This document shows positions 4,372 to 54,700 of a DNA stretch of 64,000 nucleotides, piece after piece. Within the stretch, counting starts at the first letter, position 1, and every line of letters begins with the position of its first letter. Both the position numbers and the translations under genes were made by a program. Source of the stretch: Amphibalanus amphitrite (taxonomy: Eukaryota); assembly GCF_019059575.1 (NCBI RefSeq), contig NW_024881521.1, positions 665,297 through 729,296 of the forward strand, in the 5' to 3' direction. Under the pieces are notes generated by a model that had not been told where the DNA came from, did no database searches, and worked only from the letters and a program-made list of their open reading frames with translations.

Positions 4372-5034
4372 CTGTCAAAAGAAGACATGCCAAACATCAG
4401 CATACGATTATACACAAAAGCAAGAGGCCCCGGTCTCGATATTAGGTCGTATACCAGACGGAAGGGGATATCGCGACGCGTTGACCCTGCTACCAGTTGG
4501 CATTCACGCGATAGCTGCATACTGCAACGCGGAGCAGGCATTTCCGGTGGCACCAGCGGTATAACTGTGATTAACGACCCAAGACACCACACTGCCGAGA
4601 GGTTAACAGTCGCGCAGCACATGAACGAGGCATCGGCACGGGGCACCCGGCAGCGAACCATGGTTAGACAGTAAACACTATACACCGCCTTCCGGGTTCT
4701 ATGCCGGAGTCAGCGGATATAGCGGGTCCGCTCGAAAATCTGCCATCGAGCCGTCCTTACTCAGACTGTCTAGACAATAAACCTTACCGAGCCTGGCTAA
4801 TATTTTGAACCATGAGCCGTCCCTCGCTCTGTCTAGCCACATAGCCACCTATACCCTCTCCCGTCTGACCTGTTGAGCGGCCGCCGTATGACAGTCTTCT
4901 CCTCATCCAGTACCAGCTGTTTGGCCCGTTTGATGAGTGTCTGGGTACCACAGGGCAGGTGGGCCGCCAGATGTAGGTACACCGCCTGCCGGTCGTTTCT
5001 CCGCAGCTCCTGCTGACATCGTAGCTCGATACTG

Positions 5035-5390
5035 CAGCGGAAGGGGACGGGGAGAACGGGGGTTAATACACGCGGTGATTCCAGTCCCTGATCCCTGGAT
5101 CGAACAGCATAAGATCGATACCTATGACTGGGCGGAAGGAGAAAGAGGAAACGGAGGTTTACTACACATGGCTATTCGAGTCCCTTGGTCGGACAGTATT
5201 GCGTCGATAATGAGGCCAATGGGAAAAAGGGGGAGGGAGGTGGGTTGATACACTTAGCGACCCCAGCGTCCAGCCCCTGGGTCGGTCAATACCAAGTCGA
5301 TAATGAGGCAAATGCGAAGGGAGGGGAGCGGTGAGCTAATATACTGATTCCCTGGATCGAAACAGCTCGATACATCAACGGACGGGTACA
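5035..5390. repeat. Tandem repeat, ~110-bp unit x ~3 (GATAATGAGGC-AATG-GAAGGG…TAATACAC…GATTCCC-TGGATCGAACAG)
   Basis: Three degenerate direct copies are visible by eye. Confidence 0.5.
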
Positions 5391-5575: not shown

Positions 5576-7370
5576 TCACTTGAGCAGCATCTTGTTGACC
5601 TCGGGCGTGAAGAACTTCATCTTTCCCTCTCCACTGCGACCGGCCAGCTCGGCGGCCGCCTTGATGGCGGTGACGAGCTGCGCCAGCTCCGGAGTCAGGT
5701 GCGGCAGGTCGTCCTCGGAGGGGCGGCGGCACCGCTCCGGCTCCGGCTCCGGCTCTCCCTCGGTTCCCTCCGGCTCGGCGCCCTCCTCCTCGTCCGAGCT
5801 GCTGCTGCTGTCGTCACCGCTGCTGTCGTCGCTGCTGCTGCTGTCGCCGCCGCTGTTACTGGACGAATTGTTGGCTGTGGGCAGAGGAGAAGTGGTCAAT
5901 TGTAATAAGGCTGGTCTTCGGGATGTTCCCAGGTGGCCCAGCAATAAAGCCGGCCGGCAATGGGCTTAGGGCTGGCTAAAAAGTCGGTCACGAAAGCGGT
6001 GTGAAAAAGGAAAAGTAAGTAGTTATGACTGAAAACTGAGCATAATTTTCAAGACATCGACTGTTGACGTTATAAAACCAGCGCTGAGTAACATTAGCCC
6101 TGCATACACTCTTGGCTGATTCAACTCACTGTTGGACGATGACGAGACCTTCCTGGCGGCGGGCGGGGGCGGCGGTGACGACCGCTCGGCACCCCCTGTC
6201 GCCGGCGACGAGCCGGCCTGGCGCGCCGCCGCCGCCACAACGTGGGCGATCGTCTCGTCCATCGAGTCGCGCGAGCCGTCATGACCGTTGGTCTGGGCGG
6301 TGCCATTCGTGGGGGCCTCCGCGGCTGGAAGGAGAGAAGATACGCGTCAGTTTATAATTCAAGTATGGATATGGTCACTGGAAGACGTGGGATGCAGACA
6401 GAGAATGAGGGAAAAGACAGGGAAGGACACATTAATCCGTCGGGAAAATCACAGAACGGGTGATTCCCTGTCGACCTGACACCTCAATTACTGCAGCAGG
6501 CAGCTTTGGAACGGGTAGCGTCCACAGCAGGAGCACGGTGACCTCATAAATCAAGGCACCGACTTTCTGACGCTCGACTACCCGCACTGCGTTATTTCGG
6601 TCCATGCCTCGCAACCTCGCAATCCCAACAACGGAAATGACCCTTTCAGTGGTGTTCGCTCAAGCAACGGCCGTTCACCTCCGCTTAAGTTGACAAAAAT
6701 AACACCAAGACGCCGCGCAGCAGACCGTACAGCCCGCCGTCTCCCCTAGCCCGACACCCACCAGCAGCTGTCCACGGCACTCCACTCCACACATTAATCA
6801 TTACATCCCAAAAAGCCCACATCTGAATCCGCGCCCACCGCGCATCATGAGTTCCAGTCCAATATAAGCGTGCCCTGACTTTAACTGGATTAGCGAGGAC
6901 ATTTGATCGTTTATGGGGTCATATAAATGGTTTACTCGATCATACTCTAGTCTCATAATCAGTACTCTAGATCATACTCGATCATGCCGAATAAAATCCA
7001 CAAATCCCAGCTTACCATTGACGGTCTCCGCCGCCGGTTCTGCCGCGGCCGCCGGTGGCTGAGCCGGGGGCGGCGTCTCGGCGGCCCGCTGCAGCTCTCT
7101 GTGCGCCTTCTTCTGCTCCAGCAGCTCCTTGACTGTCAGCGACGGCTTCTTCTTGAGCAGGCCGTCGATGGCGCGTCGTTTCTTCTTCTGTAGCAGGCTG
7201 GGGTCCTTCTTGGGCGGCCGGCCGAGCCTCTTTCGCGGCCGCTTCACACCGGGCTCCTGCTCCTCGCCAGTGGTGACGTCGTCGTCTGCGTCCGAGCTCA
7301 GCCGGCGCACCTGGCCGGGAGGGGGGGGGGGGGGAGGGGTGTCAGCATCGGCCGCTACCAACCGCGCCAT
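5576..7370 (-). CDS. Three-exon gene: AT-hook-containing, Ser/Asp/Glu-rich acidic nuclear-type protein (~282 aa)
   Basis: Exons on the minus strand are 7016..7370 (ATG at 7370), 6130..6324 and 5576..5874 (stop at 5576-5578). The donors are AATG|GTAAGC and ACA|GTGAGT. The acceptors are CTTCCAG|CC and CCCACAG|CC. All junctions are phase-1 consistent across three ORF-track frames (6972..7370, 6023..6262, 5576..5944). It has an AT-hook-like KRPRKRLGRPPKK, an acidic poly-Ser/Asp tract, and a C-terminal LTPELAQLVTAIKAAAELAG…FFTPEVNKMLLK. Confidence 0.55.
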
Positions 7371-16469: not shown

Positions 16470-19400
16470 ATGGGTAAAAAACGCAAATCAATCTCATCCG
16501 CTGAGTGTGATAAAAAACGCAAGAAGATTTCGGAAGCGCCGACTGGCTCCGATTTCATCCGAAGGAGAGGAGTCGTACACGTTCGAGTGATTTGGGAAGA
16601 TAAGACCGCTGGTGAGTCACATTACTCGCCATTGAATGCACTGAAGTGTGAGGAAGAAATCGCTGTTGGGTCGCGGGTGCGAATGAGGCACGGAGGCCGG
16701 GAGTGGTTTGGAGCGGTGGCCAAGAGCTCCAAGACTCGCCAGAGCCTTGTGGAAGGTAAGGGACATTGACCCGATATGAAAGGCATGCCAACTCCTCAAA
16801 TTTTAGCTGATATGGGTTACAGGAGTAGCCAATTCAATTGTGTAGAGCACCATGGAATGTATAAAAATAATGCAGAGCTGCAGCGCCTTTGAGAAGGTTA
16901 CGTGTGAAAAAATGATATGTCGCTTATGCTATGCTAATGACAAAATGGCAATGCGTAGTGGTTCAGGAGACTGACAAAAAAAAAAATGTGTTCGGTGCAG
17001 AAATTCCGGATGATGATATGCCGCTGGCGATTGTACGTGAACGGCAAAGGTCATCTAATCCCGTGTCTGACAACCTCACCGATCTTGCCGGAAGCAGTTC
17101 GAGTTCCTGTCCCGTCCTTGATTCAGCAGCCCTGAGTCAGGTGAGAGAGCTAATTGTTCGTGACATTATCAACCTGTAACTTGTAAGCTGCATGAAGGCT
17201 CGCAGCAAAAGCGGTTAAAGATACTGATGTAAAATGGCATTGGAGATTTATCCATTAAAGCTTAATAAAGCGATAAATCGCATCAAATTTTGATTCTTAT
17301 GCTGTTCATTACATCAACACAATCTACGAGTAATATTCCATTAAGTGTTTGGGCATATTTTTGGCAACTCAAGACACTACGGTAGAAAAATAATAGCAAA
17401 TTAAGACCCGCTCCTTCAGTTGGTTATGGGAGTGTCGGATTTTTCGTTTCCTTCATAATGCTTGCAGATATTTCGTACAATCAATGATTTGACTTGTCAT
17501 GGATATCGATTAAAAAATACTTTTTTTGTACAGGTGCTCTCCCCGGCGGGCAGCTGCGACCCGGCCGCGGAGCAGGGCGTGACCCCGTCCGGTGGCCAGG
17601 GGACCTCTGCCGCCGAGCAGGGGACCTCTGCTGGAGAGCGGGCCGTGGAGCAGGGCGTGACCCCGTCCGGTGGCCAGGGGACCTCTGCCGCGGAGCAGGG
17701 GACCTCTGCTGGAGAGCGGGCCGCGGAGCAGGGCGTGACCCCGTCCAGTGGCCAGGGGACCTCTGCCGCGGAGCACGGGACCTCTGCTGGAGAGCGGGCC
17801 GTGGAGCAGGGCGTGACCCCGTCCGGTGGCCAGGGGACCTCTGCCGCGGAGCAGGGGACCTCTGCTGGAGAGCGGGCCGCGGAGCAGGGCGTGACCCCGT
17901 CCGGTGGCCAGGGGACCTCTGCTGGAGAGCGGGCCGCGGAGCAGGGCGTGACCCCGTCCGGTGGCCAGGGGACCTCTGCCGCGGAGCACGGGACCTTTGC
18001 TGGGGAGCGGGCCGCGGAGCAGGGCGTGACCCCGTCCGGTGGCCAGGGGACCTCTGCCGCCGAGCAGGGGACCTCTGCTGGAGAGCGGGCCGCAGAGCAG
18101 GGCGTGACCCCGTCCGGTGGCCAGGGGACCTCTGCCGCGGAGCACGGGACCTTTGCTGGAGAGCGGGCCGCGGAGCAGGGCGTGACCCCGTCCGGTGGCC
18201 AGGGGACCTCTGCCGCGGAGCAGGGGACCTCTGCTGGAGAGCGGGCCGCGGAGCAGGGCGTGACCCCGTCCGGTGGCCAGGGGACCTCTGCCGCGGAGCA
18301 GGGGACCTTTGCTGGAGAGCGGGCCGCGGAGCAGGGCGTGACCCCGTCCGGTGGCCAGGGGACCTCTGCCGCGGAGCAGTGGACCCCGACCGCGGAGCAG
18401 GGGACTTTTGCAGTGGAGCAGGGCGAGACTCCAGCCGCGGAGCAGGGTACCTCAGCCGCGGAGCAGGGCGGGACCCCAGCCGCAGAGCAGGGGACCTTCG
18501 TCGGGGAGCAAGACCCCTGGGCTGTGTCGACAGAGGTCGCGACTCATGACGTGATTGGTCTGACTGACATAAATAACCTAGTTGATCCGGGACCTTTTGA
18601 TTTCCTGCGACTCCTGGATACGTCCGGCAGTGACATGTCGTCATTCAACGATGTACCCCTCGCTGACCTATCGATTGCTTCCTCTGGTCCCTCTGGTACC
18701 GGCGCAGCAGGTGATAGTGACATGGCCCCTATGGCCCCGCCCCACCCACGTAGCGCCGCTCATGCGTCTAGCTGGGGAGGCTTTCCGACAGCACACACCG
18801 CAAATGTCGATCCAGACGACCCGAACCCACGGTCCATGGACTGCGGTGGAGATGGACTTGACGCTGCCTCGATTAGCACCCACGGGGCTTCTTCCTCAGT
18901 AGATGGGGCATCCGATGCTCCTCGTCCGACAACGGTGGGCAGTCACACGGGCGCAAAAAAACGAGCTCGTACTCAGGAACACCAAATTCTGGGCTTTAAA
19001 CAGAAGCATGCAGTCCGTCCCATGCCTCCTGCCTGCAGCAATCGCACGTGCTCATTCGGTTGTGCCACTCACTTCAGTGAAGAACAACGCCAGGCCATCA
19101 ACGAGGCCGTCAATTCACTTTCAAGGGAGGCTAGGATGCAGTGGTACGCCACTCACGTGCGAGACATTACTCCCATTGTCACTGACAGCCCACCACTCAC
19201 CAACACCGCATCTGCCAAGCGGCGCATCATCGCCTACCGTCTCCCTGTAGCTGGAGAACAGGTCGATCGAAGGGTGTGCAAGGAGTTCTGTCTCACAACC
19301 CTCGGCTTCGCAGCGAACAATGACGGTCCGATCATATCTGCCGTGGGACGACTCATCCCAAAGCAGGACAGGCGGGGGCGCGCGGCAAACCCGGTGGCAG

Positions 19401-20623
19401 CCAGACTCGAGGACGAGCTGCAGCGGCACATTGAGCGGTACCGTCCGATGGCACCGCACTACCGCTACCTGCACGCCCCCAGACGCCGATATCTCGCACC
19501 GGACCTCAACGCAGCTGTGATGTACCAGCAGCTTGTGGAGGAAAAGGGCAAGATCTGCTCTTACGAGCGGTTTCGCAAAGCGCTGCGAAGTGCCAACGTG
19601 TCGTTCGCTCGCTTAGGCCAAGAAGAGTGCGAGATATGTACTGCATTTGACCACCACGTGAAAACTTGCTTTGAACATGAGTCGTGCAGCACGTGCCAGG
19701 AACACGCCGCCCACCACGATCGCGCCGAACAGGCTAGGGCAGAGTACGCCCGAGACCGCGAAACCACAGCGTCAGCAGAGTCGCACCTGATTGTTTCCGT
19801 GGACATGATGAGGGTCGCTCTCCTTCCCATCCTCCCTCACAAAGTGTGCGTATTCACCCCGCGACTTGTAACTTACAACGAGACTTTCGCGCCGTTGGGA
19901 GGAAAGGGGGCTGTGTCCGTCTTGTGGCACGAGGGCGTGTCTGGCCGAGATGCACCAGACGTCGCTTCAACATTCATAAAGTTCGTGGAGCTGAACCACA
20001 ACACGAAACAGTTCACCTTCTGGGCAGATAACTGCTCTGCCCAAAACAAAAACTGGACCTTGCTCTCGGCTCTTCAAAATTGTGTCAACAGGAGCGATCT
20101 TGCAGTCAAAACCATCACAGTCAAGTTTTTAGAGAAGGGACATACTAGTATGTCTGCTGATGCGGTGCACCAGGTGGTGAGCAAAAAACTTTCAAAATCT
20201 AGTGTGCGTGTGCAAGACTTTCGGGACTACGTTGTGGCATGTGAGATGGCGGGCTCAGTGCATGTGATGGCGCCGGGAGATTTTTTCGATGTCAGCAGTG
20301 GGGTGAGCGCTACGAAGCTGAAGCGTCTCGCTGATGAGGAGAAGCGACCGCTCCTGCGGGAAATAAAGGTCGTTCAGGTGCGGCGGGACGACGACCGACT
20401 GTACGTGAAGGTTGTCCATGGGCACCCAAAGTGGTCGGCTTACGACCTTTTCAAAACAACTTTTATTCCATGTGAGCAGCCAGAGAGGCGAACGACTCCC
20501 AGGGGGGTTAACAAGGAAAAGTTGGCCAAAATCATCAACAACCTAACACCTCTTATGGATGGTCATAAGACCGCCTTCTGGCTATCCCTCAACGGGACAA
20601 ACGTCCGTGACCTGATGGGATAG
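16470..20623 (+). CDS. Three-exon gene. It has an N-terminal basic/NLS exon of unknown fold, a 26-aa tandem-repeat linker, and a C-terminal HTH + pogo-type DDE_1 transposase domain
   Basis: Exons are 16470..16755 (ATG; donor GAAG|GTAAGG), 16959..17140 (acceptor GCGTAG|; donor CAG|GTGAGA) and 17534..20623 (acceptor TTTTTTTTGTACAG|G; stop TAG). The phases are consistent. The ORF-track 'M' at 17462 is TTG inside the intron. DDE motifs were read directly: SVDMM (pogo NmDEtg), FTFWADNCSAQNKN (pogo lLDNcssH) and FLEKGHTSMSADAVHQ (pogo fLPpNtTsklQPlDqg). Confidence 0.5.
17566..18510 (+). repeat. 78-bp coding minisatellite, ~11 units encoding AAEQGVTPSGGQGTSAAEQGTSAGER, degenerating at the 3' end
   Basis: A direct read shows a near-perfect 78-bp periodicity. 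Units differ by single synonymous or conservative changes (S/F, Q/H) and a few 57-bp short units. Confidence 0.9.
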
Positions 20624-22438: not shown

Positions 22439-25069
22439 ATGGGAGCCTACAAGTACATGCAGGAGTTATGGCGCAAGAAGCAGAGTGATGTGATGCGTTA
22501 CCTGCTGCGCGTGCGGATGTGGCAGTACCGCCAGCTGAACAAGATCCACCGCTGCGTCCGGCCCACCCGCCCTGAGAAGGCGCGGCGTCTCGGCTACCGG
22601 GCCAAGCAGGGTATGAGCACTGTGCTGTCAATGTTGGGTGTATTTGCATGTTGCTAACTCTGATACCTAGTAATATTATGGCCAATTGTTGAAGCTAGAT
22701 TTTAGTAATGTGTAAGTTGGTGGAACTGGAGGATGCTGCCAGCTACTTCCATTATGCTATTGAGAATGTTTCTTCACACTCAAAGGATAATATGCATTCT
22801 TTCTCTGTGTAAGGACCGCATTTTATTCATAGTGTTGTCTTAAGGAGAGAAAGTACAGCAACTGACGGCTTACCAACCTGGCTCATGTTGCATATTGGGC
22901 CGGGGTGGAGCTTGGACCACATTTGTATTTTGCACCCTACTGCCTTCATGTAGCCATCAATTGTTAATTTGCCTAGTCTGTTGTCCATATTTATTCATCT
23001 TCAAAATGAAAGATGAAGTGCCAAGTTTGACGGTCGTTTTTCCGTTCCCAGGATACGCCATCTACCGCGTTCGCCTGCGCCGCGGAGGCCGCAAACGCCC
23101 GGTGCACAAGGGCGCCACCTACGGCAAGCCGGTGCGCCAGGGAGTGAATGAGCTGAAGCTCAACATGAACCACCAGTCGGTGGCCGAGGGTCGCGTCGGC
23201 AAGAAGTGCAACGCGCTGCGTGTGCTCAACTCTTACTGGGTTGGCCAGGACGCCACCTATAAGTACTTCGAGGTGATTCTCGTCGATCCCGCGCATAAGG
23301 TGAGCATAGGGTATGATTGGTGGTTGAAGGGGTGGAATGTTTGATTCGTGGATGGGAGAGCTGAGGGAGGGCGATCGCGATGATGCTGATAGGATTTTTA
23401 TCGGGGTCCGCGGCAGTGGTGCCGATTTTTTGATGTCTTTATCGTTGGTACGATATTTCTTGTTCATGGGCGCGTTTCTTCCATATATAGGACGCATTTA
23501 GCGGTGCCGACCAAGTTCGATTAAAGGTAGTGTGCCACCTTTGAAAGATTTCCCATTTTATTTTTCCTAGGATAAGAAGCTTCTGTTTTTACCTAATATC
23601 GCAAAAAAAAATCAAAAATGGGCCTGGAATAGTGCCTTTTTCGCCTAAAAGTTTTTCGGTTTTTAGATATGTATAACAACTGTAGTGGGCTCACCTGCAA
23701 ACAGGCGTCGGGCAACAATCGCGAATGCGGCGCACTTGTGACAATAAGCAAAGGTCATTATAGTGTTACGACCATACGACGTACGGGAATGAGTTATCAG
23801 CTGTCTAATCGTAGACAACACAATGTCGAGCCTTAAACTGTAAGCCCGTATTGGTATTGTTTCGTTTATTTGGCTGTCAAACATTATTTATGGTTTGAAA
23901 TATGATTTTATGTAAAATAATTGATATGAAAAAGCCGTCTTATAAGTTATGACCCCATTTCACAACACGCAAGTGGCAGAAATGACAATGATCAGCTGAC
24001 GCATTGTTCTTGGCCGAAGTCAGAGCGCGCGGCCCGACGCACCACGCGTATTTGGAAATTCCGACCTCGACGAGCATCAGAAGCCACCTAACAGGCGTGT
24101 TCGAAACCGCAGGAGATGATGATGAACGGGTTTATCGAAACTTGATTGGATGAGCATATCGGTAATAGCGATTTCAGTGTGTGCATTTATTGTTCATAGT
24201 GGTGTGAAATGTGGTTGGGGTACGACCGACAACCCGTCGGGGCGAATTTCGCACTGGGGTACTCAAAATTTGAAGAATTTAAGACGTTTCCATGAGTTTT
24301 GAAGGTATGGATAAGTTCTAAAAATCCGGTTCTCCTTATCTGGGCCATTATCTCCATACGGTCCAAGAAAGCTGGCACACTACCTTTAAATGTCGTTATT
24401 TTTGTTTTGGAACGGGACGTCATAGAACCTTATTTCTTTCTCAGTGTAAGGACCACATTTTATCTATAGTGTTGTCCTAAGGAGAGAAAGTACAGCAACT
24501 GACGGCTTACCAACCTGGTCCATGTTGCATATTGGGCCGGGGTGGAGCTTAGACCACATTCGTTTCCTGGACTCATCCTTAACGCTGTCATTGCCGACTT
24601 CCGAGAAGTTGTCTTTTCAGCAGATGGGAGATACGAATCGTTCCTGCTAAGGTTGACGTGATTGCGGTAGGATTTGGTCTCCTGGCTGTTCCTCTCCTGA
24701 GCTTTTTTCAATGATCCAAACCTACTTCTTGTTGAGAAGCCAGAATGTTCGATGTTTGCATCACTACTATTTCACGTCCTTCGCCGAGTCGCCATAACGC
24801 ATGACCATATATATCCCCGCCCGCCGCTCTCTCCCACCTCGACCCGACTACTGACGCCCGTCTCTCCTCTACAGGCCATCCGCCACGACGCTAAGATCAA
24901 CTGGATCTGTAACGCCGTGCACAAGCACCGCGAACTGCGCGGCAAGACCTCGGCCGGCCGTAAGCACCGCGGCATCGGCCACGGACGCAAGTTCAACAAC
25001 ACCAAGGGTGGCTCGCGACGGGCCAACTGGCTGCGACGGAACACGCTCTCGCTGCGCCGCAAACGTTAA
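22439..25069 (+). CDS. RPL15: 60S ribosomal protein L15 (eL15), 204 aa, three coding exons
   Basis: Exons are 22439..22610, 23052..23299 and 24875..25069. The donors are CAGG|GTATGA and AAG|GTGAGC. The acceptors are TTCCCAG| and CCTCTACAG|. The translation [32 protein letters not shown]…AKQG|[17 protein letters not shown]…DPAHK|[40 protein letters not shown]…RRKR* is colinear with eL15 over its full length. The acceptor TTGTCTTGTTACAG 16 nt upstream of the ATG suggests an upstream 5'UTR-only exon. Confidence 0.92.
22795..22925 (+). ncRNA. Intron-1 copy of a ~125-nt paralogous element; candidate box H/ACA snoRNA
   Basis: It is ~90% identical to the copy at 24432-24560 in intron 2 of the same gene. 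It has a 5' hairpin (CTTTCTC…GAGAGAAAG), a hinge ACAGCA (ANANNA), a second GC-rich hairpin, and an ACA 3 nt from the conserved end (GGACCACATTT). Confidence 0.35.
23525..24385. mobile_element. ~860-bp TTAA-flanked MITE with a 13-bp TIR (AGGTAGTGTGCCA) inside RPL15 intron 2
   Basis: TTAA lies at 23521-23524 and 24386-24389. A perfect 13-bp inverted repeat abuts both TTAAs. No coding capacity was found. Confidence 0.4.
24432..24560 (+). ncRNA. Intron-2 copy of the same candidate H/ACA snoRNA-like element
   Basis: See 22795-22925. The substitutions between copies preserve the 5' stem (CTTTCTCTG/CAGAGAAAG-type pairing retained). Confidence 0.35.
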
Positions 25070-30600: not shown

Positions 30601-32760
30601 CAGCGCTTCGCAGTTCCCGGCTACTCTTCTTGGGTCAAGTTTGCGGCCGTCTGAGTCGCATCACGGTCCGTAAACCCTGAAATGGCCAGATCCAGACGGT
30701 TGGCCGTCGGGCTCAGATGTCCGTAGCGCCAGCCGTTCAATACTCACCGTCCCATGCGGAGCTGGTCCGATAGGCGGCCGGTCGGTCGTCTGTTTGGGCC
30801 TGTCGCTCTGACGTCATAGCTGACGTATACGACGGAAATTCCACCGCCGATATGGGGATGCTGGTGGAGAAAAAGTGGCTGAGTTTGCTCTAGGGTGACG
30901 TCATCAGGCACCAATAGCTCGGATCGCGAGTTGGTACTTGGTAGAAGCAGTTTCTGTGGAGCGGATCTCGATAACAGCCGTCTCCGGTTGATGCCAGCTC
31001 GAAGCAGCTGCACTGAAAACGCAATATTAATTGCAATATTTATGCAAACGAAACTCATCAATAGGGACAACCAAAGTGGGGTGTTTTACAACACCCGTAA
31101 TGTAAAACGCCCCGTTTGCAGGGGTCTTGCAAAAGCTCATTCTTGCCGGAATGCAACATCCGAGTGCCTTGCATATTATTTTGTTCAATAATCTGAAGAT
31201 AACACTTTAACAAAATACCCAAAGACGCATGGTGAAATAACCGGTTTAGCGGTGACACACCGTTTTTCCTTAATGGGGTCGTTTTGGACGGTTCTCCCCT
31301 CCCTATGTGTTCATTTGGTGTTTCTTTGAAAAGCATGCCAATGAAGGGTATTGACTGTATTCAGGGACTTCGCCCCCCCCCCCCCCCCAAAGTAGCACTC
31401 GCTCGGTGAACCTGCCATGGAGATCGCATTCATGCCACCATTATCGACCTGTGCCGACGTGCTCCCACCCATTCCCTTCACCTGACCCGCCGCCCCTCCC
31501 CTGGTCTGGTGACCCGCATCAATTAGGCACCACGGGGTTGTCACGTTTACCACACCCAACAGCGCGGCCCGACCCCACGGCCGGTGCTCCTAGCTGGCGT
31601 GTGGTCGTCCACAATCCATACAGGGGTGTATTGACGTGTCGTTAGCCTACACGGACGGTGGTGGCACCCGTCGGGCCCTCCGAGGCCACGTGGCGTTACC
31701 AGGACGGCGGGCAAACATTCACGGATTGGTACCGGTACGTACGGCCGGTGGCCCAGTCTAAGTGTTCGTTCTGGTCTGAGCCGACGGTAGACGGTGCCGG
31801 TGGGGTGAGGACAGTAAAGGACAGCAGACGGTTAATACTGCACGGAACACGGAACAGTGCACTGGTGCACTGCGAATGCTGAAATTGCTGTTCGATCAGG
31901 AGGAACAGGAATCGCAGATGGCATGTAAGACCCCATTGACTAGATGTTTTCCTGTGCTTGTCGACAGCTAACGTGTTGTGGCTGATCCTTTTACGGGTCA
32001 TGAATTTAACTGCTCTCTTCAAATTCGTGCTTTATTGTGACGCACTGGTAACGTATGTCGTATTCGCTCGTCAATTTATGTTTCCCGTTCTCCACACTCG
32101 TGGTTCGTTATCGCCCAGTCGGCACCCGACCATCTGTCCAAGTACCCCCGTCGGCCCGCGGCCGTCTCTCACAGCTATCCCGTAACTCCTCACATGAATC
32201 GGCGGCTCCCTGCAGTTGGCCTCCCATCGGGCCGGCCGATGACTGGACTTGAAGACTGGCTGGGTGCCAGGGCTCGGCCAAACTGGGATGTTTGTCCTCT
32301 GGCCGGCCGGCCGGCGGGGCAGGTGATTCGTACCCAGACCCGGGAGCGGCAGACGGTGGCGGGGTGTATGCACGGTCACGTCTTCTGTGCCGTGTTTCAG
32401 ACTCTGTGTAGTAAGGCGTTCGTGCCAGGGAGTGTGAGCAGTGTGGTCGCGGATCGGTGTGAGCCATTGTATATTGTGTCGCGGGGGCCCTTATGGCCTT
32501 GGACGACCTGCAGCTGCTGAACGAAGCAGCTGAAGGTAGGACAGCCGTGAGCGGTGAGTGTGGGGTGTATCCGACACCGGTAAGTACACCTCGTGTCTTT
32601 TGCTCCGCAGTGTCAGTCAACCCGTGAGCTAGGAGCTGGCGTTTGTCTACGATATGTTTTACCCCATTCGGCCAGCATCTCCGTACCTATTAAGTGTTAA
32701 TGTCGTTTGTCTTATGCATCTGCCTGTCTGACCGCCCACCTCCCTCTCACAGCGATCAAG

Positions 32761-35700
32761 ATGAGTAAGAAGGACAGTTCCAGTTCGTCGGACAGCCTGT
32801 TCCGCATCCCTCCGCACTACTATGTGCACGTGCTCGATCAGACGGCCAACGTCACCCGGGTCGAGGTCGGACCGCAGACCTTCATCAGGAAGGACAATGA
32901 ACGGTAAGTGGGCGTTCGAGCGGCATCTCAGACAGAGACAGTCGGGAATTGGAGGGATTGAAGGGTGGGGTAGATATTCTCATGAGTATTCTACGAGCAG
33001 TATGTTCCGTAGCGACAATGATGCAAAAGTTGCTCATGAACGTCGGCTAGTTGAAGAGTGTATTTCCCAGTCTTTGTGTCCGCTGTGTGGGCGGGTCGGC
33101 CATATTGCCGGCTCGTCGGAGAGCCGGGGGGTCGCGCCGCGCTGGAGCCGGGACCGGGGATGGGACGCGCCATGTGGCCGCTCTCCGCCACACCCTGGAT
33201 CGATACGGAGAGCGCCCGACATTTCGGCGGCGTGTCCAGGCCCGAGTTCACCCGTCCGACTGGGGATCGGACGCTGCGGCCGGGCGCCATCTGTATGGGA
33301 GATCGGGTACTAGTGCGGCTGGGAGCTGCCAAGCTCTCATGGTGTAGGTCAGGGCAGGATAGGTGGCGCAGCGGGCCGAGGAGCTCGGGCTTCAACTCCC
33401 TCGTTTTGCGGTCACTGTCAATAACGGTGACCGTAGAAGAGCTGTGCTTGTCTAATTCTATCGTATAGTTTCCCGTCTCGGTTTCAACCAAAATGTGATG
33501 ATGTGCTCCTCAAACCCGCTAATGTTTCGAGACTTATTATTGGCCGTCTGTCCTGACCCTGTCCCGCTCCGTCTCCAGGGTCATCGTCGGCCCGAACGCC
33601 ATGGTGGTGGTGCCGCCGCGCCACTACTGTGTCGTCGAGAACCCGGTGGTGCGCGGCGAGGACGGTCAGGTGGTGTGCGACGCCAGCGGCCAGGCGCGCC
33701 TGCTGCACGCCGACACGGAGGTGCGGCTGCACCAGGACCCATTCCCGCTGTACCCGGGCGAGAAGCTCAGCTCGGCCGTGCTGCCGCTGAAGGTGGTCCC
33801 GCCCAACAAGGCGCTCCACCTGCGCGCGCTGCGCGAGTTCAAGGAGGGGGAGGTGGTGCGCTCCGCCGGCGATGAGTGGCTGTTCGGGCCGGGCACCTAC
33901 GTGCCGCGTCCGGAGGTCGAGGAGGTGGCCGATATCAAGGCCATCATCATCGGGCCGAACCAGGCGCTCCGACTGCGGGCACGACTCGAAACCACCGACT
34001 GGAAGGGCCAGAAGCGGGTGGCCGGCGAGGAATGGCTGGTGACCAGAGTCGGCGCCTACATGCCCGGCGTCTACGAGGAGGTGGCCAAGATGGTGAACGC
34101 TCACGTGCTGACGGAGAAGACGGCTCTTCTGGTGCGCGCCACTCGCACCTTCACCGACAGTCGCGGCGTGCGCAGGAAGAACGGCGAGGAGTGGCTGGTG
34201 CGCTTCGACGATATGGAAACGTTCATCCCAGACGTGTACGAGGAGGTGGTGGAGGAACGCGAGGTGACCACCCTCACCAGCCGGCAGTACTGCGTCATCT
34301 GCGACCCGGTCGGGCCGGACGGCAAGCCGCAGCTCGGCCAGCGTCGGCTGGTGCGCGGTGAGAAGTCGTTCTTCCTGCAGCCCGGTGAGACGCTGGAAGA
34401 CGACGTCCGCGACAACTACATCCTCCAGGAGAACGAGGCGCTGGTGCTGCGCGCCGGCGAGGCGTTCACTGACAACACAGTGACGCCGCCGGTGACGCGC
34501 CGGCCCGGAGACCGCTGGATGGTCACCGGGCCCGTGGAGTTCGTGCCGCCCATCGAGGTGGAGGTGGTCGTCCAGCAGACGGCTATCCCGCTCGACCGCA
34601 CCGAGGGTATCTACGTGCGCAACAACCGCACGGGCGAGGTGCGCGCCGTCTGTGGACAGACCTACATGCTCACCCAGGACGAGGAGCTGTGGGAGAAGGA
34701 GCTGCCCGCCAGCGTGGTGGAGCTGCTGCGTACCGACGCGCTGGCCGACCGCGGCGGCTACCGGGAGCTGAGACGGTCAGCGACCAACAAGAGCCATGAC
34801 GAGTTGAGCGACCGCACCCGCGTCATCACCTACCGCGTGCCGCACAACGCAGCCGTTCAGGTCTACGACTACAAGGCGAAGCGGTCGCGCGTTGTGTTCG
34901 GCCCCGACCTGGTGATGCTGGAGCCGGACGAACAGTTCACGCAACTCTCCCTGTCCGGTGGCAAGCCCAAGAAGCCCAACACGATCCGGGCGCTGTCGCT
35001 GCTGCTCGGACCCGACTTCTGCACTGATATTGTCACTGTCGAGACGTCCGACCACGCGCGTCTCTCGCTGCAGATTGCCTACAACTGGCACTTTGATGTC
35101 GGCAACAAGACTGCCGAGGATGCGTGCAAGATCTTCAGCGTGCCTGACTTTGTGGGCGACGCGTGCAAGGCGATCGCGTCTCGTGTGCGCGGCGCCGTGG
35201 CGCAGCGACCATTCGATGACTTCCACAAGAACTCGGCCAAAATCATCCGGCAGTCTGTGTTCGGTCTGGACGACGCTGGCAAGGTGCGCAAACAGTTTGT
35301 GTTTCCGCAGAACAACCTTGTGGTCACCTCGATCGACATCCAGAGTGTGGAGCCGGTGGACCAGCGGACGCGCGACTCGCTCCAGAAGAGCGTCCAGCTG
35401 GCCATCGAGATCACCACCAACGCTCAGGAGGCGGCCGCCAAGCACGAGGCCGAGCGCACGGAACAGGAGGCGCGTGGCCGACTCGAGCGGCAGAAGATTA
35501 AGGACGAGGCGGCCGCGGAGCAGGCGCGTAAGGAGCTCGTCGAGCTGCAGACGGCGTGCGCGGCCATCGAGAGCACCGGTCAGGCCAAGGCCGAGGCGCA
35601 GAGCCGCGCCGAGGCGGCCCGCATCGAGGGAGAGGCGGCCGTGGAGCAGGCCGGCCTGAAGGCGCGCGCCGCCAACATCGAGGCCGAGTCGGAGCTGGAG

Positions 35701-36018
35701 CGGCTGCGCTCGGCGCGCGAGGCCGAGCTCAAGTACACCGAGGAGAGCAACCAGCTGGAGATCGCGCGTTCCAAGGAGATGGCCAACATCGAGATCGAGA
35801 AGTTCCAGCAGATGGTGTCGGCGATGGGCGCCGAGACGTTGAAGGCCATGGCCACTGCTGGCGGCGACCACCAGGTGCGCATGCTGCAGAGTCTGGGCCT
35901 GCAGTCCACGCTCATCACCGACGGACGCACTCCCATCAGCCTGCTGAACACCGCCCAGGGCCTGGTGGGACTGGGCCAGGCGGCCGGGACCGAGTCGGCC
36001 GTCCAGCGGCCGCGCTAG
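32761..36018 (+). CDS. MVP: Major vault protein (MVP), ~860 aa, two coding exons
   Basis: Exons are 32761..32903 (ATG; donor ACG|GTAAGT) and 33579..36018 (acceptor TCTCCAG|G; stop TAG). Exon 1 ([47 protein letters not shown]) matches the MVP N-terminus. Exon 2 carries the MVP repeats (…GEEWLV…), the shoulder domain and the C-terminal coiled coil. Long stretches are near-identical to vertebrate MVP (KSFFLQPGE…, [35 protein letters not shown]…[10 protein letters not shown]…[22 protein letters not shown]). The ORF-track 'M' at 32707 is TTG. Confidence 0.93.
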
Positions 36019-51293: not shown

Positions 51294-54200
51294 TCAGGTC
51301 GGGTCAGCTGAGCAGCTTTCTGCGGCACGAGACCAGCACGAGAGGTCGCTGCTGTCGTCCGTTGCGTCCCATAGCGAAGCTCCCAGACTCAGGAGGTTCC
51401 AGACGGGTGCATCGCTCATGGCTGACTGAACCGCCCTGTAAAACGGTAAAATAAGCTGAACAGGGTCTACGTAATTTAGCGATGGAAAACCGCTAAAGCA
51501 TATGTAAACAAGCTTTCCAAACAAATATCTTTTGTTCCCAGTATTGTATAGGGCAGGCTAACACCGAAAATGATAACATTGATAACGACACAAAATTTGT
51601 TTATTATTAAAACTTAAATACCTCATTGTTAAAATTTATAAATGCTTGCAGTACATATATGAATGCCCTATCACATAAAGTTACATAATAACATTTAGCA
51701 ATAATTCTTTGAAACGCTAATTTTAAATTGAAGTGCCCCATTATACGGTTAGTTAACAATCTCCGGGGGTACTCACAGTACGGCGATGGCGGCGGCGATA
51801 TCGGCTGGGCTGTCGACCCTGGCCCTCAGCTCGTGACACAGCGCCAGCGGGCGGCAGGTCAGGTCATCGGGCAGGGCGGCGACGGAGCCGGACAGCGAGC
51901 GGTAGGTGCCCAACAGGTGACCCACGGTGCTGGAGCCGGAGGGACAGGTCTGGTGGCTAATCTCGTCAGCAACCTCTTCACCACTTCCTTCAGCAAGGTG
52001 GTCAGCGTCTTCAGAAGCGTTTGCTTCGCTTTGGTCAAGATATTTGGTGGTGATGTTGGTGGCATGTTCTTGCTGCTGTCTGCTGGCTCCTTCAGCGTCA
52101 TCAGTCAGGCCGTCTGTACAGCGTTCCGTCAGGATCTCTAGCTCGCGGAGCAGTCTGGATCCTGCGCCCGCCACCTGACCTCCTCCCTCCTGGGTCAGCG
52201 CGTCCACCACCCAGAGGTTTGCGGTGGTGTTACCAAGCACCTCTCCAAGGGCCACGGCACGCTCCGCCGCGAACAGCGCGAACGGAAGAACAACGAGCGC
52301 CGAGAGAAGGCCGTCCACCACCGACGACCTGCCGGTACCGGCGGGCAGACCGGCTCGGTCCTGGAGGATCGTCGAGTCCGGCTCACCCCAGTCCGTGTAT
52401 TGCAGCACCTGACCTCTCTCATCAGCTCTGGTCCTATCCCAGCGCTCATCGCGCCTCAGAACACTTGGCAGAAGTGGGAATCGAATGGAGGGAACTCCCC
52501 AGTTGAGTGACGGGAATGTCGACATGCGCCGGAGGAAGCCTCCTAGCAGACCCATCTGCCAGTCGTACGCGGCGCGGAACGGAGCGCTGAGCCAGTCGAA
52601 CGACGGGAACCGGTGCTCGGCCGGCCTGTGTGGCCTGTGAGGCCCGTGAGGTCCGTGAGGTCTGTGAGGTCTGTGAGGTCTATTGGGTCGGCGAGGATGG
52701 TCAAACTCGTCCAGCGTATCAGTTTCGGCCGGTGCCGTGCCGTAGTCCACTTCTGTGACCGGGTCGAGGGTGTGTGCGTCTAGAGCTGCCTCGCTCACGG
52801 CGCCGAAGCCGGAGACCTGCGGTGTGTAGGTAGTCGGAAACGGCTGGACGTCTATGGGCTCGGAGGGCCGTGTCCCATCGCGACGGTTCGGCGACCCGCG
52901 TAGAGTCGGCAACTGAGAGTTGTAGGGAGGACCGTACATCTGGCTTGGTCGTTTCCTGGGAGCTCCATATGTTTGACTGGGTCTGCTTGGAGTGTTGTAT
53001 GAAGAGCTTGGCTTGGAATTCGGAGCACCGTTAGACGCGCTCGACGTAGACTTCGGTGGTCCGTATGATGCTTTGGGTTTACTCTTTGGTGGTCCATAAG
53101 ATGTCTTGGGTTTTGACTTCGGTGGTCCGTACGAAGCATTTGGTTTGGATTTAGGTGGCCCATACGATGCGTTTGGTTTAGACTTGGGTGGCCCATACGA
53201 TGCATTTGGCTTAGACTTTGGAGGTCCATACGAAGAGTTTGGCTTCGACTTCGGTGACCCATGCGATGGTTTCGGTTTTGCTTTTGGTGGTCCATACGAT
53301 GGTTTTGGTTTTGCCTTTGGTGGCCCGTATGATGGCCTTGGCTTTCGTTTGGGCTTGGGAGGCCCATACGAAGGTCTGGGCCTTCGCTTAGACTTTGGTG
53401 GTCCATATGAAGGTTGAGGCTTTCGCTTGGGTTTCGGAGCTCCGTACGAAGGCCTTGGCCTGGGTGCTCCATATGACGGTCTTGGTCTCTTGCGACGTCG
53501 ATGGGGTCTGTTCCTGTTTCGCCTGACGTGTCGCTCGTACCACCAGGGCGTCCTCCATGTCGTGAGGTACTCCCAGGAGGGGAACAGTCTGCGGATCCTC
53601 CTCCTCATGCCGTTCCAGATGCGGGACATCCGGGATACTATGCCGGCCCTCGGTATGGAGCTGGCTGCGGTCTGGTCTTCGTACCTGTACTCGTTGTCTC
53701 CGGCCGACCACCCGGAGTCGGAGCTAAACGCCGAGTCGTAGTCGCCGAGCTCGAGTCCATTCACTGATTCCAGCGCGTCCTGACTGGATTCGGCCGTCAG
53801 ATCAGGGTCGCCGTAGATGGGGTGCGTGTCGGCCGTCTTTGTGATGACCAGCCACTGAGAGTCGCTGGTGCCCAAGTCACCTTTCGCCGAACCACCCGGA
53901 CCAGGACTGGAGCCGAGCATTGGGGTCCACTGGAGGCTGTCGGCACAGGTACTGCACGGACCCAGTGGGGATCCGTCGTCTGACGGCCCTAAAATGGTGG
54001 AGGCGGTGGCCAGCTGATCCTCCAGGAATGGTTCCGAGCCGGCCTCGTAAGGGGCCTCCAGCCCCGTCTCCGCCACACTGGTGACTTCGGTGACCTCTGT
54101 GGCCTCGGTGCTGACCTCTGTGACGTTCGGACGGCGCAGCATCTCCTCGAAAATCGTGGCGAGCGTGTCTCGAACAGCCTCCTTAAAGCCGGTCCCGTTC

Positions 54201-54700
54201 GTGTCATGTTTCGTGCCGGTATCAACGATGGCTGCGTCACGTGCAGTCAACGAGGTGATGTATGATGTGAGGTTATCCACACGGTGAGCCGACAAGCCGT
54301 CTTTCGGTGGTGTGTTTGGGTATCCTAAACTGTTGACCTGCCTTAGGTCATCCCCTGCCGGCCAGGGCCACCCACGCTCCGGGAGACGGTAGCCGCTGAC
54401 CAGGTCGTCCTGTCCCCGCGCTGTACTCTCTCCAGCTCCGCCATCCTCTGAGATCTCCTCGTCATCCTGCCACTGTATGACCCAGTCTGGACCGGCTGAC
54501 CTGTCCACGGACATGTACCGCGATGGGGACAGGGCCGAGGCCACCGTCAGCGCGGCGGCTGAGCCGGAGCCGTGGTGTAGCAGCAGATCAGACAGGGTGG
54601 CTGGACCGAACACCGTCACCTCGTAACCTGGGCTTAACGTCAGCAGCGACAGCAACAGTGGAAGAACGGCCAGCGGCGATGGCTGCAGAAGGCGCACCAT
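51294..54700 (-). CDS. Secreted Lys/Pro-rich tandem-repeat protein. The main 2.9-kb exon is 974 codons. A possible spliced 49-codon terminal exon lies downstream
   Basis: The main exon is 51777..54700 (ATG at 54700) with a signal peptide MVRLLQPSPLAVLPLLLSLLTLSPG. About 20 units of (P)SYGPPK(S/A)KP(K/N/R) were read in the protein, followed by a (RPH)n tract. The in-frame stop TGA (51773-75) overlaps a consensus donor ACT|GTGAGT. A downstream acceptor CCGTTTTACAG|G opens an in-frame 142-nt exon (51294..51435) ending in TGA. That gives two alternative C-termini (974 aa unspliced, ~1021 aa spliced). Confidence 0.55.

Follow-up and report, generated by a model that had tools for sequence, protein, structure and literature searches.

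What are the two closely similar stretches that lie one in each intron of the gene for ribosomal protein eL15 (RPL15) of the barnacle Amphibalanus amphitrite? The locus was analyzed within 64,000 nucleotides (nt) of contig NW_024881521.1 (assembly GCF_019059575.1), a stretch referred to here as the window and numbered from its first letter. An initial annotation, made from the letters of the window, had described paralogous sense elements of ∼125 nt in both RPL15 introns and proposed them as candidate intron-encoded small nucleolar RNAs (snoRNAs) of the box H/ACA class. The paralogous pair was borne out, at 128 nt and 93% identity, with the coordinates shifted by 2–4 nt, and the proposed class gained support from the fold, from orthology in both introns, from invariant pocket arms, and from complementarity to two known pseudouridine (Psi) sites. 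It is highly probable, as far as comparative evidence can tell, that the two elements are paralogous intron-encoded box H/ACA snoRNAs with the same two ribosomal RNA (rRNA) specificities.

The two elements and their constraint

The copies are direct repeats. A repeat search of the window aligned 22797–22935 with 24434–24572 (91% over 139 nt), and blastn aligned 22797–22926 with 24434–24563 (93.1% over 130 nt; E = 3e-52) without detecting a third copy in the 64-kb window. The sequences flanking copy 1 and copy 2 are unrelated. Both copies are oriented in sense; copy 1 ends 127 nt and copy 2 ends 313 nt upstream of the 3′ splice site of its own intron (Table 1). When folded on the + strand, each copy yields a 5′ hairpin, an ACAGCA hinge, a G+C-rich 3′ hairpin, and ACA followed by 3 nt; in the 5′ hairpin, an internal loop divides the lower stem (CUUUCUC/GAGAAAG) from the upper one. 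The initial annotation had named the lower-stem sequences, the hinge, the G+C-rich second hairpin, and ACA, and all of these are present in both copies. The minimum free energies (MFE) of the two copies on the + strand are −43.8 (z = −2.3) and −41.9 kcal/mol (z = −1.6); on the − strand, neither copy folds better than its shuffles (z = −0.3 and −0.8). In canonical H/ACA RNAs, the box lies 14–16 nt from the top of the pocket. Here, 13 nt separate the upper stem from box H and 14 nt separate it from ACA, so that the boxes start at the 14th (H) and 15th (ACA) nt, inside the canonical range.

Relatives of the locus were found by a protein search with a 149-amino-acid (aa) open reading frame (ORF) that comprises exon 2 plus read-through into both introns (window 22895–23341), in a collection that includes ORFs called on raw genomic contigs. 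The top matches were three barnacle exon-2 fragments (P0241–P0243, 90–98% identical). Three barnacle sources underlie these fragments: L132, a 41-kb ENA contig; L133 and L134, which carry one and the same sequence in two metagenome assemblies from ENA; and L135/L136, from TARA. In every contig that extends far enough, both RPL15 introns hold the element in sense, from which it follows that the two-copy arrangement predates the divergence of these lineages; judged from these loci, it is old and common to at least four of them. Alignment of nine copies with 40-nt flanks delimited a conserved span from 2 nt 5′ of the first stem to ACA+1, outside of which the sequences are unalignable. A span that ends at the predicted RNA ends is the pattern expected of an RNA trimmed to a protein-protected core; ACA is invariant in eight copies, and conservation ending at ACA+1 fits an RNA whose 3′ end is at ACA+3.

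Constraint was counted over the eight distinct copies (alignment A3) on a functional model of 29 pairs with both pockets open. All orthologs, folded singly, give hairpin-hinge-hairpin-ACA, and the RNAalifold consensus independently has the same architecture. Standard pairs fill 96.6% of the 232 cells, as against 35–54% when the partners are slid by 1–3 columns. Thirty-seven cells hold G-U, and the same pairs read on the opposite strand are paired in 81%, a fall which indicates that the + strand is the functional one. One-sided changes are kept paired through G-U at 10 pairs. The differences between copy 1 and copy 2, described in the initial annotation as compatible with the first stem, likewise preserve pairing by way of G-U where they fall in stems. 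Two-sided changes occur at two pairs, 22-39 and 87-103 (U-A, U-G, C-G). The covariation score was reached by 15 of 500 column shuffles.

Variation is distributed very unevenly over the element. Just one of 29 columns varies in the pocket arms and essential box positions taken together, compared with 14 of 21 in the apical loops (Fisher p = 1.5e-6) and 19 of 58 in the stems (Fisher p = 0.002), where nearly all changes preserve pairing. In the 5′ arm of the 5′ pocket, columns 11–15 are invariant and column 10 is U or A; its 3′ arm and both arms of the 3′ pocket are invariant throughout the eight copies. Box H, either ACAGCA or ACAUCA, follows straight after the 5′ hairpin; A59, A61, and A64 are invariant, and a single one of its three N positions varies (column 62, G/U). 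There is no structural explanation for invariant unpaired bases in internal loops, and they look like guide sequence.

Predicted rRNA targets

The ribosomal DNA (rDNA) for the target scan was recovered from contaminated "bacterial" assemblies. A complete Saccharomyces cerevisiae-type unit (L017; 18S 1800 nt, 25S 3396 nt) gave the standard numbering, L050, L067, and L085 supplied the 3′ end of mammalian-type 18S, and L100 supplied the CCAC variant of the site in the large subunit (LSU), as in human 28S; viral contigs gave no matches to eukaryotic LSU rDNA. Every U was scanned in canonical H/ACA geometry, about 1380 uridines in total, and one clear best site emerged per hairpin. For the 5′ hairpin, this is CCUU-[U]-G-UACACA in the small subunit (SSU), yeast-numbered U1628, within the conserved CCCUUUGUACACACCGCCCGUC near the SSU 3′ end. 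Copy 1 forms 10 Watson-Crick pairs there (4+6) and copy 2 forms nine; the next best site has seven. For the 3′ hairpin, it is LSU CCAC-[U]-U-UUGGUAAGC, with 13 pairs (4+9), all of them Watson-Crick on the CCAC variant. The target is yeast-numbered LSU U1122 (cca[u/c]-U-U-uugguaagc) in the U-run of helix 39, and no second rRNA site passes the scan filter for this hairpin.

The matches were compared with two nulls. Under the first, with arms of 12–14 nt and G-U counted as a full pair, the match of the 3′ hairpin was reached by 1.6% of shuffles and is moderately unusual. Under the second, the arms were restricted to loops bounded by conserved stems and a weighted score was used. The score of the 5′ hairpin was then reached by 27 of 3000 shuffled and 56 of 3000 random arms (0.9–1.9%), and that of the 3′ hairpin by 7 of 3000 in either set (0.23%).

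Human 18S is 1869 nt long, and mammalian-type 18S continues for 177 nt beyond the SSU target U, which places the target at human U1692. In the mass-spectrometry map of human rRNA, this position is Psi, contained in the T1 fragment CCCUU[Psi]G (1687–1693) and modified to 98–100% (PMC6182160 supplement). The same supplement numbers the human LSU segment A1845 C1846 U1847 U1848 U1849 U1850 G1851 G1852 U1853, with Am1858 downstream, and gives 95% modification for 28S Psi1847; BACS tells Psi1847 apart from Psi1849 (PMC11541003). In yeast, 25S Psi1124 is guided by snR5 (PMC5699541, PMC8307265). Yeast Psi1124 lies nine nt before Am1133 and human U1849 nine nt before Am1858; by this equal spacing, yeast Psi1124 corresponds to human Psi1849, and the predicted U (U1122 in yeast), which directly follows CCAC, to human U1847. 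A location of the LSU site near human Psi1731 or yeast Psi960 had also been considered and was rejected, as the supplement coordinates put the site at Psi1847/1849. About 100 of the ∼1400 rRNA uridines are Psi, which makes two chance coincidences with known Psi sites unlikely. Modification of the uridines picked by the two pockets is almost complete in human and may likewise occur in barnacles; very probably, the RNA is a guide that directs two conserved uridine-to-pseudouridine conversions in rRNA.

Following the established biogenesis of intronic snoRNAs, the copies would be transcribed within the RPL15 pre-mRNA and bound cotranscriptionally by the H/ACA proteins (dyskerin/Cbf5, Nop10, Nhp2, and Gar1). 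Exonucleases would then trim the spliced intron to ∼128 nt, from 2 nt 5′ of the first stem to ACA+3. In the resulting ribonucleoprotein, the pocket arms are predicted to pair with rRNA around the unpaired U-N, and both target uridines of barnacle pre-rRNA would be isomerized. As the two copies have the same specificities, they may act redundantly or additively, that is, through dosage, and a ribosomal-protein host gene would tie the supply of the snoRNA to ribosome production.

Weighing the alternatives and the history of the pair

Several observations weigh against this assignment of class and targets. Folding, one of the checks that the initial annotation had proposed, gave hairpin-hinge-hairpin-ACA in both copies and in the orthologs; another, comparison with Rfam, was negative, in that no H/ACA family matched any of the nine copies, in the window or at the orthologous loci, at E ≤ 10. 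Nothing in the whole window reached its gathering threshold. Human SNORA64 (U64), the box H/ACA guide of 18S Psi1692 (PMC7760958), has no detectable homology to the barnacle RNA in sequence or structure, and its Rfam model gave no match at E ≤ 10. Covariation is mostly one-sided (wobble) and two-sided in only two pairs; among eight related sequences, it is suggestive, not decisive. The 3′ pocket is mostly self-complementary, and both the MFE and the RNAalifold fold show it closed (by GGCU/AGCU and CCA/UGG pairs); when it is opened, the lower stem of the 3′ hairpin has ∼4 base pairs (bp). As to the targets, the match of the 5′ hairpin was reached by 18% of shuffles under the first null and is unremarkable by itself, the modified U of the LSU run in yeast is Psi1124, 2 nt 3′ of the predicted U, and the barnacle sites are predictions from yeast-type, mammalian-type, and eukaryotic L100 rDNA together with human modification maps.

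Lacking an Rfam H/ACA match, the RNA owes its class membership to features rather than homology, namely the hairpin-hinge-hairpin-tail fold, box H in the hinge, the bipartite pocket, and the sense intronic location. The conserved CAB box (UGAG) of small Cajal body-specific RNAs is absent; UGAG occurs in four of the eight copies, in the 3′ strand of the upper stem and not in the loop, and in neither copy of A. amphitrite.

Some of these points would fit a genuine H/ACA snoRNA with other targets or with one active hairpin, whose 3′ hairpin is structural, serves the equivalent of Psi1849 (yeast Psi1124), or acts on a non-rRNA substrate. The closed 3′ pocket, the modification of U1124 instead of U1122 in yeast, and the 18% of the looser null for the 5′ hairpin all speak for it, and an alternative register for the Psi1849 equivalent can be drawn, with two G-U pairs and a box distance of 16 nt. 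However, apart from column 10, both arms of both pockets are invariant in the eight copies while the loops vary, and both predicted sites are highly modified Psi in human. Furthermore, 13 Watson-Crick pairs form in the canonical register, with the box as far away as expected; in the alternative one, four guide nt at the top of the pocket stay unpaired. Other targets, or a single active hairpin, are regarded as improbable.

A conserved, stable structure lying in sense in the introns of a ribosomal-protein gene could also be a cis-regulatory RNA structure of RPL15, for instance a splicing or autoregulatory element bound by eL15, and some ribosomal-protein genes are indeed autoregulated through intron structures. 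Yet the element is found in both introns, its distance from the splice site varies (about 127 and 313 nt), it carries the full set of H/ACA boxes at canonical spacing, and conservation does not extend beyond the 128 nt. Moreover, its most conserved bases are unpaired ones in internal loops, complementary to two rRNA Psi sites. Regulation in cis is thus very improbable.

With regard to copy number, R1, a covariance model of the eight copies, was run over a total of 147 kb, which combined the window with 83 kb from other barnacle sources and the cDNA contigs. It returned the expected copies only, two per gene and all on the host strand, at 135–152 bits; the next match had 18 bits. A pattern of guide and box positions only, searched in 241 million metagenome records, had a single match (L129), which shows no further similarity and no RPL15 nearby and is ascribed to chance. 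Neither a poly-A tail nor a target-site duplication nor a terminal repeat flanks the element. A short interspersed element (SINE) scattered over unrelated loci, named in the initial annotation as what would overturn its proposal, is not what was found, as the 147 kb hold two copies in each RPL15 gene and no others. That a dispersed repeat (SINE, miniature inverted-repeat transposable element, or snoRNA-derived retroposon) landed twice in RPL15, as two near-identical copies in unrelated flanks and a true terminal inverted repeat (TIR) transposon adjoining copy 2 might suggest, is largely refuted and deserves next to no credence, given that even the covariance model found no extra copy in the 64-kb window or the 83 kb of other barnacle DNA, that three other barnacle sources have both copies at orthologous positions, and that the sole metagenome match is chance and the hallmarks of transposition are missing.

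A pair of H/ACA snoRNAs being the preferred explanation, its history can be read from the alignment. The 5′ hairpin of the intron-2 copies of L132, L133, and L135 has a common and distinct upper stem (GGGCAAUGC...GGGUUGUCC), instead of which the intron-2 copy of A. amphitrite has an upper stem of the intron-1 type (columns 19–37). This copy is 93% identical to its own copy 1 and 91% to that in intron 1 of L133, whereas its identity to the remaining intron-2 copies is only 80–86%. Four columns of the 3′ half (62, 98, 103, and 107) vary between species and agree between both copies in every species. The intron-1-type stem in copy 2 and the species-wise agreement of columns argue for gene conversion between the introns, and by these patterns, the 93% identity would reflect homogenization and not recent duplication. 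They indicate concerted evolution of the two intronic copies, in which an old duplication was followed by sequence exchange that keeps the copies alike.

One copy departs from the usual form. In the intron-1 copy of L133 (171–296), two mismatches interrupt the 7-bp lower stem of the 5′ hairpin (UAGUAUCUC vs the usual UUCUUUCUC), and the model score of this copy, 135.5 bits, is the lowest of all; the copy may be decaying, tolerated since the intron-2 copy is intact.

The RPL15 genes of shrimp (L137) and brine shrimp (L138) have no homolog of the element and no guide motif, for which reason RPL15 seems to be a host in the barnacle lineage only, although R1, at an effective sequence number of 1.09, is a narrow model. 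Tentatively, and with less than even confidence, the element may be seen as a barnacle-lineage H/ACA family that unites two ancient specificities, perhaps held by separate guides elsewhere (a comparison which covers the human 18S-1692 guide SNORA64 only), whose modules were re-assorted and re-hosted and whose two copies are kept by ongoing gene conversion as a dosage device tied to ribosomal-protein expression.

The locus, its surroundings, and known relatives

Table 1. Coordinates of the putative snoRNAs, their predicted functional parts, and the host gene in the window, and of the orthologous copies in other barnacle contigs.
Feature	Copy 1 or single position	Copy 2	Strand	Remarks
Putative snoRNA (copy 1, RPL15 intron 1; copy 2, RPL15 intron 2)	22797–22924	24434–24561	+	128 nt each, predicted mature RNA; repeat, alignment, fold; model scores 146.9 and 151.9 bits
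5′ pocket, 5′ arm (UGUGUA in copy 1, AGUGUA in copy 2)	22806–22811	24443–24448	+	copy 1 predicted to pair with SSU UACACA, 3′ of target U
5′ pocket, 3′ arm (AAGG)	22842–22845	24479–24482	+	predicted to pair with SSU CCUU, 5′ of target U
Box H, ACAGCA (ANANNA)	22855–22860	24492–24497	+	
3′ pocket, 5′ arm (GCUUACCAA)	22868–22876	24505–24513	+	predicted to pair with LSU UUGGUAAGC
3′ pocket, 3′ arm (GUGG)	22905–22908	24542–24545	+	predicted to pair with LSU CCAC
Box ACA	22919–22921	24556–24558	+	3 nt before predicted 3′ end
Host gene RPL15/eL15	22439–25069		+	3 exons, 204-aa eL15 translation, GT-AG introns
RPL15 exons	22439–22610, 23052–23299, 24875–25069		+	
RPL15 intron 1	22611–23051		+	441 nt
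RPL15 intron 2	23300–24874		+	1575 nt
L132 copies in introns 1 and 2	5016–5142	6794–6920	host strand	
L133 copies in introns 1 and 2	171–296	976–1102	host strand	
L134 copies in introns 1 and 2	1–48	728–854	host strand	intron-1 copy cut by contig end
L135 copies in introns 1 and 2	357–484	2427–2553	host strand	

The exon structure of the host gene is backed by intronless cDNA contigs of a related species (L001–L007, 85–91% nucleotide identity), whose breakpoints match both RPL15 junctions, and Pfam PF00827 was found on the RPL15 homologs. The barnacle's own RPL15 protein is missing from the searched collection, which explains why the best named match is only 77% identical. The nearest relative, P0002 (94%), is represented by metatranscriptome contigs only, which are intronless and chimeric; they confirmed the junctions and supplied no introns. 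P0001 (L008) was uninformative. In L001–L007, one barnacle RPL15 ORF is joined to varying neighbors (TCP1 chaperonin, RPL23/uL14, and ubiquitin-eL40), the fusion points lying at or near the acceptor site in the 5′ untranslated region equivalent to window ∼22422; these gene fusions are probably assembly artifacts. The junction of L005 with the next gene carries GATTGTCTAACAG, which we take to be the 3′ end of an Oikopleura spliced leader.

Most of the extra length of intron 2 is due to an 873-bp element (23519–24391) located 42 nt upstream of copy 2, with 22-nt TIRs (TTAAAGGTAGTGTGCCACC... / ...GGCACACTACCTTTAA) and TTAA at both ends, presumably a target site of the piggyBac type. The element is single-copy in the window, and nothing similar was found in the RPL15 loci of the relatives, whose introns 2 are otherwise unalignable with that of A. 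amphitrite; it looks like a species-specific, non-autonomous DNA transposon. Within it, 24112–24146 (+) resembles the archaeal C/D RNA sR3, the only Rfam match in the region, and carries GAUGAUGA and a CUGA-like motif; at 18.9 bits (gathering threshold 41; E = 0.077), the match was rejected as chance.

Downstream of RPL15, at a distance of ∼8 kb, is the gene for the major vault protein (33601–36018 [+] and ∼32724–32908), and its single-exon ORF (33601–36015) is 100% identical to the NCBI A. amphitrite major vault protein isoform X6. In a related barnacle (L130), this linkage may hold, the contig ending ∼2 kb short of the expected RPL15; in Pollicipes pollicipes (L131), there is no RPL15 within 10 kb of the major vault protein gene, and the linkage is not kept. 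Of two long ORFs in the window, one (17462–20623 [+], 1053 aa) has a tandem repeat in its N-terminal third (AEQGVTPSGGQGTSAAEQGTSAGER...) and a C-terminal part that looks like a transposon protein. The other (51773–54700 [−], 975 aa) has an extended tract of repeats of the PSYGPPKSKPK type, together with PHRPHRPH repeats, and may encode a secreted structural protein.

As a by-product of the rDNA search, more than 120 species-representative "bacterial/archaeal" assemblies (L009–L128) were seen to hold contigs of eukaryotic rDNA, that is, contamination. Among them are Cellulomonas telluris NZ_QXFN01000006.1 with the S. cerevisiae-type unit (L017), and Nocardioides agariphilus (L050) and Mucilaginibacter phenanthrenivorans (L067) with mammalian-type 18S, which is possibly of interest to database curators.

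The analysis adds a new, well-supported, and testable snoRNA annotation for a crustacean group that Rfam does not cover, a literature search for barnacle snoRNAs having found none, and it predicts two specific Psi in barnacle rRNA, at ribosome sites that are modified in human. It is also a small example of H/ACA guide evolution, in which arms and boxes appear frozen, stems drift via wobble, and loops are free, with paralogs that would be homogenized by gene conversion and a host gene unlike that of other crustaceans. In addition, feature-based and comparative evidence can recover snoRNAs that are missed by Rfam models. No concept of the field is altered; the RNA is absent from Rfam, yet as a member of a well-known class it is ordinary.

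The closest functional counterpart is human SNORA64, whose Rfam accession we take to be RF00264 and whose host is a ribosomal-protein gene, RPS2. It is like the barnacle RNA in class, architecture, intron-encoding, and the predicted target U of the 5′ hairpin (CCCUU[Psi]GUACAC), whereas the barnacle RNA differs in its second predicted specificity (the LSU Psi1847 equivalent) and its host gene. SNORA70 had been considered as the human 18S-1692 guide and was rejected, as the literature gives SNORA64. With yeast snR5 and the guide(s) of human Psi1847, for which a literature search identified no named RNA, the barnacle RNA shares the targeting of the same rRNA segment, CCA[C/U]UUUUGGUAAGC (helix 39), by an H/ACA pocket; snR5, however, modifies the U two positions further 3′ than the one predicted here.

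In Drosophila, the introns of 27 cytoplasmic ribosomal-protein genes host snoRNAs (PMC2246290, whose reference list includes a paper on multi-intron H/ACA clusters), and in arthropods, ribosomal-protein genes are standard hosts of intronic snoRNAs. The barnacle pair resembles these in having one snoRNA per intron, the sense orientation, a ribosomal-protein host, and paralogs in successive introns, and differs from them in that RPL15 as the host and the sequence family itself appear to be specific to barnacles.

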